In this document: positions 1-5,739 of the stretch, in pieces
Layout: each line of letters begins with the position of its first letter
How positions within the stretch are numbered: position 1 is the stretch's first letter
Source of the DNA: Escherichia coli
GTDB lineage: Bacteria; Pseudomonadota; Gammaproteobacteria; Enterobacterales; Enterobacteriaceae
DNA: 64,000 nt
Strand: one strand, 5' to 3'
Assembly: GCF_024502345.1 (NCBI RefSeq)
Contig: NZ_JALDNN010000001.1
Program-made: the position numbers and the translations under genes
The notes under the pieces: model-generated
What the model was told of the DNA's origin: nothing
Database searches by the model: none
The model's input: the letters and a program-made list of their open reading frames with translations, nothing else

Positions 1-1
1 G

Positions 2-61
2 TTCAACAACGCCATTCTGGCGAGTGAAATTGCCAAAGAATACCAGCATCTCGCGGGTTAA
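2..61 (+). CDS. psuG: 3' end (last 19 codons, FNNAILASEIAKEYQHLAG-stop) of an upstream gene, most likely pseudouridine-5'-phosphate glycosidase
   Basis: Open frame from window edge to TAA at 59-61; position directly upstream of a NupC-type transporter matches psuG-psuT synteny; identity from synteny only. Confidence 0.4.
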   Translation, partial: FNNAILASEIAKEYQHLAG

Positions 62-154
62 TTTCTGACGGGCAGAAAGCCGTCGCCCGTACTCATCAAG
101 CATACCAAAACCTGGCGCTGACGCCGGGTTTACTGGCATGAAGGGAAAATCATT

Positions 155-1405
155 ATGGATATAATGAGAAGTGTTGTGGGGATGGTGGTGTTACTGGCAA
201 TAGCATTTCTGTTGTCAGTGAATAAAAAGAGCATCAGTTTGCGCACGGTTGGAGCCGCACTGCTGCTGCAAATCGCTATTGGTGGCATCATGCTCTACTT
301 CCCACCGGGAAAGTGGGCAGTAGAACAGGCGGCATTAGGCGTTCATAAAGTGATGTCTTACAGTGATGCCGGTAGCGCCTTCATTTTTGGTTCGCTGGTT
401 GGGCCGAAAATGGATGTCCTGTTTGACGGTGCGGGTTTTATCTTCGCCTTTCGCGTACTTCCGGCGATTATTTTCGTTACTGCGCTCATCAGTCTGCTGT
501 ACTACATTGGCGTGATGGGGCTGCTGATTCGCATCCTTGGCAGCATTTTCCAGAAAGCTCTTAACATCAGCAAAATCGAATCTTTTGTCGCAGTCACAAC
601 TATTTTCCTCGGGCAAAATGAGATCCCGGCGATCGTTAAACCGTTTATCGATCGCATGAATCGCAACGAGTTGTTTACCGCAATTTGTAGCGGGATGGCG
701 TCCATTGCTGGTTCGATGATGATTGGTTATGCTGGAATGGGCGTACCAATTGACTACCTGTTAGCGGCATCGCTGATGGCGATCCCAGGTGGTATTTTGT
801 TTGCACGTATTCTTAGCCCGGCCACCGAGCCTTCGCAGGTCACATTTGAAAATCTGTCGTTCAGCGAAACGCCGCCAAAAAGCTTTATCGAAGCGGCGGC
901 GAGCGGTGCGATGACCGGGCTGAAAATCGCCGCTGGTGTAGCGACGGTGGTAATGGCGTTTGTCGCAATTATTGCGCTGATCAACGGCATTATCGGCGGA
1001 ATTGGTGGCTGGTTTGGTTTCGCCAATGCCTCTCTGGAAAGTATTTTTGGCTATGTGCTGGCACCGCTGGCGTGGATCATGGGTGTGGACTGGAGTGATG
1101 CCAATCTTGCGGGTAGCCTGATTGGGCAGAAACTGGCGATTAACGAATTCGTCGCTTACCTGAGTTTCTCCCCATACCTGCAAACGGGCGGCACGCTGGA
1201 AGTGAAAACCATTGCGATTATCTCCTTTGCGCTTTGTGGTTTTGCTAACTTTGGTTCTATCGGTGTTGTCGTTGGCGCATTTTCGGCTATTTCGCCAAAA
1301 CGTGCTCCAGAAATCGCCCAGCTTGGTTTACGGGCGCTGGCAGCAGCAACGCTTTCCAACCTGATGAGTGCGACTATTGCCGGGTTCTTTATTGGTCTGG
1401 CGTAA
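155..1405 (+). CDS. psuT: NupC-family nucleoside:H+ symporter (putative pseudouridine transporter), 416 aa
   Basis: ORF track; ATG at 155; NupC/CNT-family multi-TM protein; symbol assigned by position next to psuG end. Confidence 0.85.
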   Translation: MDIMRSVVGMVVLLAIAFLLSVNKKSISLRTVGAALLLQIAIGGIMLYFPPGKWAVEQAALGVHKVMSYSDAGSAFIFGSLVGPKMDVLFDGAGFIFAFRVLPAIIFVTALISLLYYIGVMGLLIRILGSIFQKALNISKIESFVAVTTIFLGQNEIPAIVKPFIDRMNRNELFTAICSGMASIAGSMMIGYAGMGVPIDYLLAASLMAIPGGILFARILSPATEPSQVTFENLSFSETPPKSFIEAAASGAMTGLKIAAGVATVVMAFVAIIALINGIIGGIGGWFGFANASLESIFGYVLAPLAWIMGVDWSDANLAGSLIGQKLAINEFVAYLSFSPYLQTGGTLEVKTIAIISFALCGFANFGSIGVVVGAFSAISPKRAPEIAQLGLRALAAATLSNLMSATIAGFFIGLA

Positions 1406-1412
1406 TGCTCGA

Positions 1413-1456
1413 TTTGTAGACCGGATAAAACGTATTAAGCGTTGCATCCGGCAATC
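1413..1456. repeat. REP-like palindromic unit downstream of psuT
   Basis: GTAGACCGGATAAAACG...GCATCCGGCA palindrome resembling REP consensus. Confidence 0.45.
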
Positions 1457-1475
1457 GCGCTATTGCAAATAATTT

Positions 1476-2135
1476 TTACTGCATCATCCCGGAGAATTTA
1501 TTCTCCGGGTCCATCTCCAGCGCCAGTCCTGACAACTGCTTTCTGTTTTTAATGAGATACCCTTTCTTGCTTTTAGTTAATAAACCGTCGTGAATGAATT
1601 GCGCGAGAACATATAAAAGATGTCGATAAGAAACGCCTAAATACTCTGCCGCTTGCGTATGCTTTTCGTGATAAAGATCACCTTCCTGCGAGAGTAATAT
1701 AAAAGCTGCCAGGCGATTAACTAACGGAAATGATTGATTCTGAGTTAAAGAAACAATATTACGATAATTTTTATGACTTAAGGTGACGCAGAGTTTTCGT
1801 AAAAATAGCGTGTCGTTTAATAACAGCGGGCGGTAATGTTTCATAGAGAGCGCAAGGCACCAACACTCTTCAATAGCCTGCACCGCACGCGGTTCATGGT
1901 CTTTGTCGATTAACTCAATCTCACCAATAAAACAGGGGGCGGCAAAGAAATCGATCAGCGACACGCGACCATTAGCAAGCGTGGCGTAAAGCCTGGCGCG
2001 GCCTCGCGTCAGATAAAACAGCCAGGACGGCTGTTGCCCTTCCTGCACAATGTAGTCACGCGCTAAAAAATGAAACAGCCGCGTATCGGCTGAAACATCC
2101 GTTAAAAAGCAATCCTTAAACGCGGATTCACTCAT
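1476..2135 (-). CDS. yeiL: CRP/FNR-family transcriptional regulator YeiL (219 aa from ATG; ORF track GTG extension to 2174)
   Basis: ORF track; cNMP-binding plus HTH regulator; ATG (MSESAFKD...) gives the 219-aa length I recall. Confidence 0.8.
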
Positions 2136-2187
2136 CAATTGCAGCTTAAGATCATTATTGTGGATTTCTTTCACGATGTTTATCCGC

Positions 2188-2203
2188 TGTGAGATTTCTC
2201 ATA
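2188..2203. promoter_or_regulatory. CRP-like site TGTGA-N6-TCATA in the yeiL/rihB divergent region
   Basis: Match to TGTGA-N6-TCACA consensus (9/10). Confidence 0.3.
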
Positions 2204-2303
2204 TTTAGCATACGTACGCTGTTGTTAAGATTCAATCATCGGCCCGGTCGAATTTTCTTTGCTGTAGAAAAAATAACGCAACTGGAAACAGAGGAAATAA
2301 ACA

Positions 2304-3245
2304 ATGGAAAAGAGAAAAATTATTCTGGATTGTGATCCGGGTCATGATGATGCTATTGCAATGATGATGGCAGCGAAACATCCGGCGATTGATTTATTAG
2401 GCATCACTATTGTAGCGGGTAATCAGACGCTTGATAAAACATTAATTAATGGCCTGAATGTTTGCCAGAAACTGGAGATTAATGTTCCGGTTTATGCGGG
2501 GATGCCGCAACCCATTATGCGTCAACAAATCGTTGCCGATAATATTCACGGTGAAACCGGACTGGATGGCCCGGTATTCGAGCCGCTGACCCGCCAGGCA
2601 GAAAGTACCCACGCGGTGAAATACATCATTGATACCCTGATGGCAAGCGATGGCGATATCACTCTGGTGCCGGTTGGTCCGCTTTCAAATATCGCGGTGG
2701 CAATGCGTATGCAACCCGCGATCCTGCCCAAAATCCGTGAAATTGTGCTAATGGGCGGCGCTTACGGTACAGGCAACTTCACGCCATCTGCCGAGTTCAA
2801 CATCTTTGCTGACCCGGAAGCCGCACGCGTGGTGTTCACCTCCGGCGTTCCATTAGTGATGATGGGCCTCGATCTTACCAACCAGACCGTTTGCACCCCG
2901 GACGTAATTGCTCGGATGGAAAGGGCAGGCGGCCCTGCCGGAGAGCTGTTCAGCGACATCATGAACTTCACTCTCAAAACGCAGTTCGAAAACTACGGCC
3001 TGGCTGGCGGCCCGGTGCACGACGCCACCTGCATCGGTTATCTGATTAACCCTGATGGCATTAAAACCCAGGAGATGTACGTCGAAGTGGACGTCAACAG
3101 TGGCCCTTGCTATGGGCGTACCGTCTGCGACGAGCTGGGCGTTCTTGGCAAGCCCGCTAATACCAAAGTCGGCATCACTATTGATACCGACTGGTTCTGG
3201 GGCTTAGTCGAAGAGTGCGTGCGCGGCTACATCAAAACCCATTAA
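2304..3245 (+). CDS. rihB: Pyrimidine-specific ribonucleoside hydrolase (IU-nucleoside hydrolase family), 313 aa
   Basis: ORF track; N-terminal DCDPGHDDA aspartate cluster typical of nucleoside hydrolases; synteny. Confidence 0.9.
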
Positions 3246-3344
3246 GTGTTGATAACAAGCCGGGTCAGTATCGCAAGATCCAAGCCCGGCTATTTCTGAT
3301 GGGCAGAAAGCCGTCGCCCAATATGACATGAAGAGATAATAACT

Positions 3345-4595
3345 ATGGATGTCATGAGAAGTGTTCTGGGAATGGTGGTATTGCTGACGATTGCGTTTTT
3401 ACTGTCAGTAAACAAGAAGAAGATCAGCCTGCGTACCGTTGGCGCGGCGTTAGTGTTACAGGTCGTGATTGGCGGGATTATGCTTTGGTTACCGCCAGGG
3501 TGTTGGGTCGCTGAAAAAGTCGCTTTTGGCGTGCATAAAGTGATGGCGTACAGCGACGCGGGTAGCGCATTTATCTTCGGTTCGCTGGTCGGGCCGAAAA
3601 TGGACACGCTGTTTGATGGCGCAGGATTTATCTTTGGTTTCAGAGTGTTACCGGCAATTATCTTCGTCACCGCGCTGGTGAGTATTCTCTATTACATCGG
3701 TGTGATGGGGATCTTAATTCGCATTCTCGGCGGTATATTCCAGAAAGCATTAAATATCAGCAAGATCGAGTCATTCGTCGCGGTCACTACCATTTTCCTC
3801 GGGCAAAACGAAATTCCGGCAATCGTCAAACCCTTTATCGATCGTCTGAATCGCAATGAATTATTTACAGCGATTTGTAGTGGCATGGCCTCGATTGCTG
3901 GTTCGACAATGATTGGTTACGCCGCACTGGGCGTACCTGTGGAATATTTGCTGGCGGCATCGTTAATGGCGATCCCAGGCGGAATCTTGTTTGCCCGCCT
4001 GTTAAGCCCGGCTACGGAATCTTCGCAGGTTTCTTTTAATAACCTCTCTTTCACCGAAACACCGCCAAAAAGCATTATTGAAGCCGCCGCGACAGGGGCA
4101 ATGACCGGGCTGAAAATCGCCGCAGGTGTGGCGACAGTAGTGATGGCATTTGTCGCCATCATTGCGTTAATTAACGGTATTATCGGCGGCGTTGGCGGCT
4201 GGTTTGGTTTTGAACATGCCTCGCTGGAGTCCATTTTAGGTTATCTGCTGGCCCCACTGGCGTGGGTAATGGGTGTTGACTGGAGTGATGCGAATCTTGC
4301 CGGGAGTTTGATTGGACAGAAACTGGCAATAAATGAATTTGTCGCTTATCTCAATTTCTCACCCTATCTGCAAACGGCTGGCACTCTGGATGCTAAAACC
4401 GTGGCGATTATTTCCTTCGCGTTGTGCGGTTTCGCTAACTTTGGTTCTATCGGGGTGGTGGTGGGGGCGTTTTCTGCGGTTGCACCACACCGTGCGCCGG
4501 AAATCGCCCAGCTTGGTTTACGCGCGCTGGCGGCGGCGACACTTTCTAACCTGATGAGTGCCACCATTGCCGGGTTCTTTATTGGTTTAGCGTAG
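3345..4595 (+). CDS. nupX: NupC-family nucleoside transporter, 416 aa; close paralog of the ORF at 155-1405
   Basis: ORF track; near-collinear similarity to psuT along the full length; position downstream of rihB. Confidence 0.85.
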   Translation: MDVMRSVLGMVVLLTIAFLLSVNKKKISLRTVGAALVLQVVIGGIMLWLPPGCWVAEKVAFGVHKVMAYSDAGSAFIFGSLVGPKMDTLFDGAGFIFGFRVLPAIIFVTALVSILYYIGVMGILIRILGGIFQKALNISKIESFVAVTTIFLGQNEIPAIVKPFIDRLNRNELFTAICSGMASIAGSTMIGYAALGVPVEYLLAASLMAIPGGILFARLLSPATESSQVSFNNLSFTETPPKSIIEAAATGAMTGLKIAAGVATVVMAFVAIIALINGIIGGVGGWFGFEHASLESILGYLLAPLAWVMGVDWSDANLAGSLIGQKLAINEFVAYLNFSPYLQTAGTLDAKTVAIISFALCGFANFGSIGVVVGAFSAVAPHRAPEIAQLGLRALAAATLSNLMSATIAGFFIGLA

Positions 4596-4604
4596 TGTGC
4601 GATT

Positions 4605-4648
4605 TATGAGCCGGATAAGATGCGGTCAAGCGTCGAATCCGGCAACAT
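4605..4648. repeat. REP-like palindromic unit downstream of nupX
   Basis: GAGCCGGATAAG...GAATCCGGCA palindromic motif. Confidence 0.4.
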
Positions 4649-4650
4649 TG

Positions 4651-5739
4651 TTACACCATTGGCACTAATGAAAGCGCGTTATCGGCAGACAGGGTAGGGT
4701 TGTTTAAGCTGCCGCTGGCGCGTGAAATTGCCGCGCAGGCTACCGCAAAACGGGCGCTGTCGCGGAAACTGTATCCTTCAAGAAAGCTATATACCAGGCC
4801 CGCCATAAAACCATCGTCAGCACCAAAACTGTCTACTGTCGTATGCGCTGGCGCGGTCAGCAAAAATTGTTCTCCATCCTTTTCGCTGCAATAAACTGAC
4901 TCATCGGGCAAATAAACAAACAGTTGCTGAACACCTTGCTGATGCAACGCATTCACTGCAGCATTACGGTCAGCATCGCTGGTGATCGCCTGTCCCCATA
5001 AAATTTCCAGCTCCGGTAAAGTGGGTTTCAGGGTGTGAATATGCGCCAGCCAGTGTTTGATTTTGCCCGCTTTGAATTCTGAAACGGTATCGACAAACAC
5101 CGGGATCTCATCAGCGAGGGTAAAGACCCATTCCAGCGCCTCGGCTGTCAGGTTGCAATCAGCCAGTACCACGCCCGCATGACGAAGTAAATCGCGCGAC
5201 CCGTTCAGTAGTTGCGGTGTCAACTGTTCCAGCAGATGGGTATCGTTAATCGCCAGCACGGTTTGATCGTCTCGATTGGCAATTGCCAGATACGTCGATG
5301 TGCTTTGACCATGCAAACGAACGCAGCCGGAGACATTCACGCCGGCGCGGCGCGTTTCTTCCAGGAGCATTTCGCCATAAAAGTCATCGCCAATCACTGA
5401 AAGCAAATGGACGTCACGGCCTAACAGCGCCAGATTGTGGGCGATATTGCGTCCAACGCCGCCTGCCGAGCAATGAATTGTACCGGGATGAGAAGCCGCT
5501 TGCGGGTAATGGATATCCGCCATCCCGCGAATATCCATATTGATTGTCCCCACCACTACGCAGTATTCCTGCTCGGTGAGAATGTAACCTTTGCCTTTAA
5601 TCCGGCCTTTGCGCATTAAATCCATAATATGCGCCGCAACGCGCGAACGACTGATTTGCAGCATGTTCGCAATTTCGTTCTGCTGAATCAGCGGGTTACG
5701 CCGTAAAATTGCAAGGATCTCCTTTTCCCGGTTATTCAT
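4651..5739 (-). CDS. yeiI: Putative kinase with N-terminal winged-HTH and PfkB-type carbohydrate/nucleoside kinase domain, 362 aa
   Basis: ORF track; N-terminal HTH then PfkB-like core; stop of nfo lies 2 nt upstream (likely nfo-yeiI operon). Confidence 0.85.
   Translation of the reverse strand: MNNREKEILAILRRNPLIQQNEIANMLQISRSRVAAHIMDLMRKGRIKGKGYILTEQEYCVVVGTINMDIRGMADIHYPQAASHPGTIHCSAGGVGRNIAHNLALLGRDVHLLSVIGDDFYGEMLLEETRRAGVNVSGCVRLHGQSTSTYLAIANRDDQTVLAINDTHLLEQLTPQLLNGSRDLLRHAGVVLADCNLTAEALEWVFTLADEIPVFVDTVSEFKAGKIKHWLAHIHTLKPTLPELEILWGQAITSDADRNAAVNALHQQGVQQLFVYLPDESVYCSEKDGEQFLLTAPAHTTVDSFGADDGFMAGLVYSFLEGYSFRDSARFAVACAAISRASGSLNNPTLSADNALSLVPMV

Follow-up and report, generated by a model that had tools for sequence, protein, structure and literature searches.

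A conserved stem-loop in the leaders of the paralogous transporter genes psuT and nupX of Enterobacteriaceae, probably a regulatory element

The two paralogous nucleoside transporter genes psuT and nupX of Escherichia coli are each preceded by a small stem-loop, hereafter hairpin 1, whose stem is maintained by compensatory changes and which recurs at the same place in at least nine named enterobacterial genera. The copies discussed here lie in a stretch of 64,000 nucleotides (the window; NCBI RefSeq assembly GCF_024502345.1, contig NZ_JALDNN010000001.1), for which a first-pass annotation, made from the letters alone, had noticed a 27-nt motif common to the 5' regions of both genes. The pattern of nucleotide changes argues that hairpin 1 is a sense-strand RNA stem-loop under selection, with a constrained loop and tied to the transporter leader, and it probably is an undescribed control element for transporter expression.

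Hairpin 1 and its conservation

Both copies of the 27-mer are found by pattern search where they had been announced, without any other match in the window at up to 3 mismatches, 0.00 matches being expected from shuffled sequences. They are identical at 26 of 27 positions, with a single C/T difference. Copy 1 starts directly after the stop codon TAA of psuG (59-61), as described at first; the gap to the start codon of psuT is indeed 66 nt, that to the start codon of nupX being 25 nt instead of the 26 nt first given. The motif covers most of hairpin 1:

62-88, + strand: copy 1 of the 27-mer, TTTCTGACGGGCAGAAAGCCGTCGCCC (exact pattern match)
68-90, + strand: hairpin 1 of the psuT leader, ACGGGC (68-73) paired with GCCCGT (85-90) (centroid and isolated fold, RNAalifold, covariation)
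3293-3319, + strand: copy 2 of the 27-mer, TTTCTGATGGGCAGAAAGCCGTCGCCC (exact pattern match)
3299-3321, + strand: hairpin 1 of the nupX leader, TGGGC (3300-3304) paired with GCCCA (3316-3320) (fold; loop identical to the psuT copy)

In the psuT leader a bulged A74 separates the stem from one more pair, G75-C84; with both of them counted, the loop is 11 nt long (74-84). The fold energy is -11.1 kcal/mol, as centroid and in isolation. In the nupX leader the outermost pair (A3299/A3321) is lost because of a 12-nt deletion.

We collected the upstream regions of psuT-type genes (after psuK-psuG) and of nupX-type genes (after yeiL/rihB). Their conserved core is GGC-N11-GCC, and the flanks of this core covary: ACGGGC/GCCCGT, ATGGGC/GCCCAT, ACAGGC/GCCTGT, GCGGGC/GCCCGC. 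Among 17 sequences the 6-bp stem (alignment columns 13-18/30-35) is 96% paired, three of its pairs display double changes, and none of 500 shuffles reaches its score. After pooling with metagenome leaders, 33 distinct hairpin windows were tested for the 6-bp stem together with a weak outer pair and with the G-C pair that spans the bulge: double changes affect five pairs (23 cells), and out of 500 shuffles none does as well for the cells paired, for the cells changed or for the covariation score. Four core pairs have compensatory changes. Slid registers of the stem are 33-53% paired in the 17 sequences and 33-51% in the 33. RNAalifold, unguided, predicts hairpin 1 together with a second hairpin downstream (hairpin 2, see below). 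The G75-C84 pair across the bulge is supported as well, being A-U in Enterobacter nupX and G·U in K. michiganensis. Reading the variant stems one against the other, at least seven double substitutions look independent across both paralog lineages. Compensatory pairing thus beats both the shuffled and the slid controls, which is the mark of a structured cis-acting RNA.

The first-pass annotation had drawn another hairpin through the same letters, GACGG-loop-CCGTC. This inverted repeat is present in the E. coli psuT copy, and as GATGG...CCGTC in the nupX copy; in competition with the conserved stem, it even belongs to the minimum-free-energy fold computed for the 105-nt psuT leader. However, it does not hold across the 33 distinct orthologous leaders: it is 65% paired, no better than shuffles (484 of 500 equal it), its central pair (columns 15-26) is broken in 26 of them, and one cell has a double change. 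The 17 sequences tell the same, with the central pair broken in 12 and zero compensatory changes. In place of the GCCGTC of E. coli most genera have GCGGTC, without any GACCG partner upstream. That the functional fold would be GACGG (67-71)-loop-CCGTC (80-84), alone or as a two-state switch with the conserved stem, is therefore hardly credible. An overlapping hairpin TTTCTG/CAGAAA was also rejected, as it is not conserved among orthologous leaders.

The loop of hairpin 1 is 11 nt long in 38 of 38 distinct sequences, though the flanks are full of indels. Its position T28 is invariant and G20, G24, C25 and G27 are conserved at 90% or more, beside columns 21-23 and 26 that are free to vary; its 3' half reads G-C-S-G-U. 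The 5' flank is mostly A/U- or pyrimidine-rich. The nupX hairpin of Enterobacter has a divergent, self-complementary loop, GATCCCGGGTT, on a longer stem of 8 bp.

The wobble pairs inform on the strand. In the 33 sequences the core pairs include 10 G·U or U·G cells for only 2 non-pairing ones (C·A and A·C). The E. coli psuT hairpin is polymorphic on its 5' strand only, which reads ACGGGC, GCGGGC or GTGGGC while GCCCGT stays the same; in the sense RNA these variants still form G·U pairs, and they would be mismatched in an antisense RNA or in a symmetric protein site, which points to the RNA of the sense strand. A double-stranded DNA operator, in which ACGGGC-N11-GCCCGT would be bound by a dimer of YeiL (CRP/FNR family) or of YeiI (helix-turn-helix, HTH, and PfkB kinase), has for it the inverted repeat itself and the fact that yeiL and yeiI stay adjacent to these genes across genera. 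But changes in one half-site are matched by changes in the other (ACAGGC/GCCTGT, ATGGGC/GCCCAT, GCGGGC/GCCCGC), unlike in the evolution of a site that a protein reads, the 10 wobble cells would be C·A symmetry mismatches on the other strand, and conservation is asymmetric within the 11-nt "spacer". Besides, no promoter-like (sigma-70-like) site was found by our scan on the + strand between 1 and 4700, so that the element lies inside polycistronic units. We consider such an operator very unlikely. We also considered a terminator of the minus strand: an A-run stands 5' of the hairpin in K. spallanzanii, Entomohabitans and the leader L103, but E. coli, Citrobacter and Leclercia lack it, and the wobble pairs speak for the sense strand.

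The search in orthologous loci, suggested by the first-pass annotation, found hairpin 1 in the psuT and nupX leaders of Escherichia, Citrobacter, Klebsiella, Enterobacter and Leclercia, and also of Kluyvera, Buttiauxella, Superficieibacter and Entomohabitans. A metagenome scan, excluding E. coli, was anchored on the 3' strand of hairpin 2 and on the start of the coding sequence, leaving hairpin 1 free: among the 51 loci recovered (35 unique leaders), 50 contain hairpin 1, and the exception is truncated. A covariance model of hairpin 1 gives 21-42 bits on psuT and nupX leaders, except for the most divergent one (L105, 16.9 bits), and in 146 loci plus the window it has no credible match outside these leaders. 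In 70 loci of distant NupC homologues (about 50% identity) the best stray match, of 21.5 bits (E 0.033), falls inside a coding region.

The model matches nothing in Hafnia, Serratia and Klebsiella sp. BIGb0407 (transporter 73% identical), where the psuG-psuT gap contains a different, much longer stable hairpin, CCTGAAAGG...CCTTTCAGG; homology between both hairpins was rejected on this ground. The operon of these bacteria (L007:2885-2935, L008:2835-2885, L009:2890-2940) consists of an HTH-kinase gene, psuG and the transporter gene; their long hairpin is preceded by an A-run and, on the minus strand, resembles an intrinsic terminator. Two other local arrangements were seen. In Superficieibacter nupX (L010:2890-2927) an extra hairpin, CAGGCAT-N16-ATGCCTG, immediately precedes hairpin 1; its loop contains AGCCGTATCGC, which resembles the loop of hairpin 1, and it may be a degenerate tandem copy (12.9 bits with the covariance model). 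In Enterobacter (L084, L085, L090) the order is yeiL, rihB-nupX, psuK-psuG-psuT, all in one direction, with the two hairpin leaders 3.4 kb apart on the same strand.

Within the species, a 40-nt query matches 5424 of 5426 complete E. coli genomes, at a median of 2 places per genome and a maximum of 3. This rules out that the motif is a generic repeat, an outcome that the first-pass annotation had named as fatal to its proposal. A third place is found in a few genomes, and 6 places are on plasmids at E<=10; these may be chance partial matches. The four-fold degenerate sites of psuT and nupX (n=191) are 46% identical: unconstrained sequence is near saturation, so that a non-coding match at 26 of 27 positions is not neutral. 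Part of this identity may nevertheless come from patchy gene conversion between the paralogs, atop an older purifying selection.

Gene conversion leads to a further possibility, that hairpin 1 is a non-functional relic of the duplication, kept alike in E. coli by exchange between paralogs. The loop AGAAAGCCGTC and the 5' flank ATTTCTG of E. coli nupX match those of E. coli psuT, which suggests some homogenisation; in other genera the nupX orthologues carry AGTAAGCGGTC there, between flanks that bear no relation to these. Yet a relic should not have kept its hairpin in species with a single paralog and in both paralogs of distant genera, nor should it be without any indel between flanks that indels have scrambled; the double substitutions look independent, and the T-A stem pair that marks the nupX lineage falls within the putative conversion tract. 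This explanation retains very little credit.

Anatomy of the leaders and of the duplicated unit

The gene order in the window is the end of psuG, psuT, yeiL (on the minus strand), rihB and nupX, in reverse orientation relative to MG1655 (2.25-2.26 Mb). Apart from hairpin 1 and the 27-mers, the features are:

1-61, + strand: 3' end of psuG, stop codon TAA at 59-61 (match to MG1655 psuG, in reverse orientation; tblastn with PsuG)
91-107, + strand: C/A-rich spacer ACTCATCAAGCATACCA (leader alignments; homologous between full-length psuT and nupX leaders)
108-131, + strand: hairpin 2, AAACCTGGCG-CTGA-CGCCGGGTTT, resembling a weak terminator (folds, RNAalifold)
138-157, + strand: Shine-Dalgarno region (AAGGG, 141-145) and start codon (155-157) of psuT, homologous to 3328-3347 of nupX (alignment)
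155-1405, + strand: psuT coding sequence, 416 aa, NupC/CNT family
1416-1453, + strand: repetitive extragenic palindromic (REP)-type unit 3' of psuT (alignment, pattern, weak Rfam matches to the REP-derived naRNA4)
2304-3245: rihB coding sequence
3258-3291, + strand: hairpin after the rihB stop codon, GCCGGGTC...GCCCGGCT (fold)
3345-4595, + strand: nupX coding sequence, 416 aa
4606-4644, + strand: REP-type unit 3' of nupX (alignment, pattern, weak Rfam matches to naRNA4)

As first described, the two transporters are of near-equal length, in fact both of 416 aa, and each gene is followed by a REP-like unit; they are 88% identical as proteins and 78% as DNA. The homology of the two units starts exactly at A61/A3292 and nothing aligns upstream, in agreement with the proposal that the motif belongs to the duplicated transporter unit. 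The REP units stand at aligned positions and have the flanking GCGATTT in common, which indicates that a REP was already in the unit when it was duplicated; the pattern itself matches at 1421-1452 and 4611-4643, and its family has 6 members in the window.

Whole-leader alignments give the ancestral order as hairpin 1, a C/A-rich spacer (ATCA..ATACC..AAA), hairpin 2 and the Shine-Dalgarno sequence. The about 40 extra nucleotides of the psuT leader are thus ancestral and not an insertion. The spacer is down to about 8-11 nt in some psuT lineages, so no single-stranded motif conserved in it is required. Hairpin 2 has a stem of 9-10 bp (10 bp in the window) followed by 3-4 U, which pair with an upstream A-tract; its 3' strand GCCGGGTTT is invariant in 9 of 9 unbiased full-length leaders. 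It is not called by our terminator scan (3 T in the window leader, for a threshold of 5 T in 8), and judged by its letters it would be a weak intrinsic terminator at best. The window differs from NC_000913.3 by at least one base in the psuT leader, just 3' of this hairpin (position 133, ACTGGC vs ACCGGC), and thus comes from a strain near K-12 but other than MG1655. As for hairpin 1, it is no intrinsic terminator: it is followed by ACTCATCA in psuT or ATATGACA in nupX, without a T run, and the scan is silent there.

The nupX lineages have undergone nested deletions of hairpin 2 and the spacer, and every one of them has kept hairpin 1. The full leader is retained in K. spallanzanii; Superficieibacter and Entomohabitans lack hairpin 2; Buttiauxella, Kluyvera and Enterobacter lack still more. 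In E. coli the further deletion of 12 nt is found in 5040 of the 5040 complete genomes matching the query, and leaves hairpin 1 at 23 nt from the start codon. This shorter leader (window 3320-3344 vs L001:2960-3000) is seen relative to the sister lineage L001, named E. coli in GTDB, and to other genera.

Several pairings or readings of the leader were looked for and rejected. An antiterminator that would exclude hairpin 2 is neither in the RNAalifold consensus nor, by inspection, conserved in 47 unique full-length leaders; a pairing of the 3' strand of hairpin 1 with the 5' strand of hairpin 2 is present in some Citrobacter leaders only. A pseudoknot or long-range partner of the loop, sought from -120 to +300 nt in 12 species, has no consistent position. 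The pyrimidine-rich 5' flank would be a good anti-Shine-Dalgarno in E. coli nupX and in K. spallanzanii, but this pairing is inconsistent in Buttiauxella, Kluyvera and Entomohabitans. A coding explanation, either by in-frame read-through of psuG or by a small open reading frame (ORF; ATG at 138), is not conserved across genera. In both leaders ATGAAG is present at homologous positions (138-164 and 3328-3339), just 5' of the true start codon; it opens in psuT an ORF of 8 codons that overlaps the start codon (ATGAAGGGAAAATCATTATGGATATAA) and in nupX an ORF of 3 codons. Escherichia and Citrobacter have this ATGAAG, Klebsiella and Leclercia do not. Upstream of the nupX leader, the hairpin that follows rihB is itself followed by TATTTCT, so that the first bases of the 27-mer could also provide the T-rich tail of a terminator of rihB; other genera have not conserved this hairpin.

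Possible roles of hairpin 1

We tentatively propose, with a probability of about 40%, that hairpin 1 is a recognition hairpin for a trans-acting factor setting the read-through or the stability of the transporter message. Hairpin 1 opens an untranslated leader that was copied along with the transporter gene in the duplication that gave psuT and nupX. The factor, a protein or a small RNA, would recognise hairpin 1 and so determine the amount of transporter message that is produced, or that persists, from the polycistronic transcripts of psuK-psuG-psuT and rihB-nupX; hairpin 2, where kept, would supply the stop of an attenuator-like module. The RNA form would be the one active in vivo, with an effect on termination, stability or translation. 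We favour this reading because the loop is constrained in its length and at 4-5 of its bases, and because the function appears independent of the distance to the start codon. It also has for it a conservation beyond neutrality, compensatory and wobble pairing on the sense strand, and the constant length and positions of the loop, as well as the restriction of the element to two leaders and the survival of hairpin 1 when hairpin 2 is deleted. To call it a shared attenuator or a regulator-binding site, as was suggested at first, seems a reasonable guess as far as the sequence goes.

Several observations weigh against a recognition hairpin. The E. coli Term-seq tables (PMC7815308) list no 3' ends in either leader. 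Neither Hfq-associated hybrids nor predicted small RNAs appear at the leaders in Hfq-CLASH (crosslinking, ligation and sequencing of hybrids), in RIL-seq (RNA interaction by ligation and sequencing) under nitrogen starvation, or in the supplements on RIL-seq small RNA prediction; the binding factor is putative. The start codon follows at 23 to 66 nt, depending on the leader, and the spacer may be reduced to about 8 nt, which makes a direct control of ribosome binding unlikely; nor are the two hairpins joined by any conserved antiterminator pairing. The element is narrowly distributed, within one family; the unrelated and longer hairpin at the psuG-psuT junction of Hafnia, Serratia and relatives would fit a generic structural role equally well; and gene conversion may explain some of the near-identity of the E. 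coli copies.

Such a generic role, in which hairpin 1 would be a passive structural boundary at a messenger end left by endonucleolytic cleavage, without any specific factor, is the closest competitor and a possible one, although we hold it for rather unlikely. Cleavage could occur in the A/U-rich 5' stretch or in the C/A-rich 3' spacer, and the hairpin, then at the end of the transporter message or of that of the upstream enzyme, would block the 5'-end-dependent RNase E or 3' exonucleases. In every case it indeed separates two genes of the same orientation, that of an enzyme (psuG or rihB) and that of the transporter, it is kept whatever the downstream distance, its 5' flank has mostly the A/U- or pyrimidine-rich composition mentioned above, and a non-homologous, very stable hairpin occupies the psuG-psuT junction in Hafnia, Serratia and BIGb0407. 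On the other hand a barrier leaves unexplained the invariant loop length and the 4-5 conserved loop positions beside free neighbours; the stability of the stem is no more than moderate (-8 to -11 kcal/mol), and in the Term-seq tables cited above no RNA ends are mapped at hairpin 1.

More doubtful is that hairpin 1, with hairpin 2 where present, forms a ligand- or protein-responsive RNA switch of Enterobacteriaceae. Its narrower form, a small-molecule riboswitch with hairpin 1 as the aptamer for pseudouridine or another pyrimidine nucleoside and hairpin 2 as the terminator, appears still less probable. The location 5' of nucleoside transporters and the succession of a hairpin with conserved unpaired loop nucleotides and a terminator-like hairpin would suit it. 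But the element has about 23 nt, without a junction or a pseudoknot and without a loop partner from -120 to +300 nt; the spacer is variable and dispensable and offers no alternative pairing with the terminator; the nupX lineages have lost this terminator; and no Rfam family matches.

The least probable of all is that these letters form an ops-like element, which RfaH or another elongation factor of the NusG type would read on non-template DNA, or else a pause signal. The ops consensus is GGCGGTAGnnTG, with an essential G5-T6; GCGGTCGCCCGT matches it at 8-9 of 12 positions, as judged by eye on the alignment and not by a tool search, and has its invariant G-T at the position of G5-T6, but 8 of 12 is a weak match, the position of A7 is mostly C, the 3' half of the match is conserved through its pairing with 68-73 (covariation), the operons are short and metabolic, and psuT and nupX are not known as RfaH targets.

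Known systems and the meaning of the element

The element most resembles the intercistronic or leader stem-loops that tune distal genes, combined with the layout of a protein-dependent attenuator. Like the malE-malF REP hairpins, the papB-papA stem-loop or the Rhodobacter puf hairpins, hairpin 1 is a G+C-rich hairpin in an intra-operon gap, retained whatever its exact distance to the next start codon. Unlike them it has a unique sequence in two copies per genome, a short stem, and an invariant loop length with conserved bases, needless for a pure nuclease barrier. With protein-dependent attenuators, such as the Bacillus PyrR loop ahead of pyrP and pyrB or the RAT-terminator (ribonucleic antiterminator) of BglG and SacY, it shares the conserved-loop hairpin followed by a terminator-like hairpin and the location, leader or intercistronic, ahead of a pyrimidine or nucleoside transporter gene. 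Here, however, there is no antiterminator and no overlap of the binding hairpin with the terminator, and hairpin 2 has only 3-4 U and is absent from many nupX leaders. The PyrR binding site of Rfam gives no match at E<=10. E. coli is not known to have a PyrR.

Other likenesses are more superficial. The first hairpin of the ompA 5' untranslated region, a 5' stabiliser, is also a small stable stem-loop at the upstream edge of a leader, whereas hairpin 1 lies inside polycistronic units, with no known start or processing site just upstream. REP units and bacterial interspersed mosaic elements (BIMEs) are also palindromic intergenic sequences, true REP units following both transporters, but the 27-mer is found at a median of 2 and a maximum of 3 places per genome against 6 REP in the window alone, and there is no sequence similarity. 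The ops element shares a short G-C-G-G-T-N-G-C core with an invariant GT, and differs by the 8-9 of 12 positions, by a conservation that RNA pairing explains and by the type of operon. The element thus fails the defining tests of a REP, of an intrinsic terminator (for hairpin 1), of a classical attenuator or riboswitch, of ops and of a DNA operator.

Annotation did not provide a name either. A scan of 1-5000 with Rfam 15 (E<=10) gave nothing relevant in the leader, with a chance-level match of isrJ over 58-132 (18.9 bits for a gathering score of 37, E=4.7). The RefSeq annotation is empty between these genes, and two surveys of structured RNAs and motifs of intergenic regions do not mention the element. 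The Hfq-CLASH tables (PMC7213987, supplement) contain CpxQ-psuT, CpxQ-nupX and CyaR-nupX hybrids within the coding sequences; they fall at about 173-223 (psuT) and 4450-4475 (nupX) of the window, in G-rich stretches such as GGGGTGGTGGTGGGGG. These hybrids suggest a control of both transporters by small RNAs, separate from the leader hairpin.

The E. coli operons psuKGT and rihB-nupX serve to scavenge nucleosides and are poorly understood. Their genes are poorly expressed under laboratory conditions, and rihB is said to be silent in K-12. For PsuT, no uptake was found of the nucleosides tested in PMC11241209.

The finding is a modest one, as it concerns one small hairpin ahead of two genes in a single bacterial family. 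We see hairpin 1 as an undescribed, narrowly distributed leader stem-loop, probably regulatory. Even in E. coli, small structured leaders of this kind still escape annotation, since genome-wide RNA-motif screens miss elements so short. If the less probable RNA switch were true, the expression of PsuT and NupX would be coupled to nucleoside availability or RNA turnover, and a new class of regulatory RNA would exist in E. coli K-12 itself. Independently of its mode of action, an element backed by covariation at the junction between enzyme and transporter genes gives a handle on how the output of the transporter is uncoupled from that of the enzyme.

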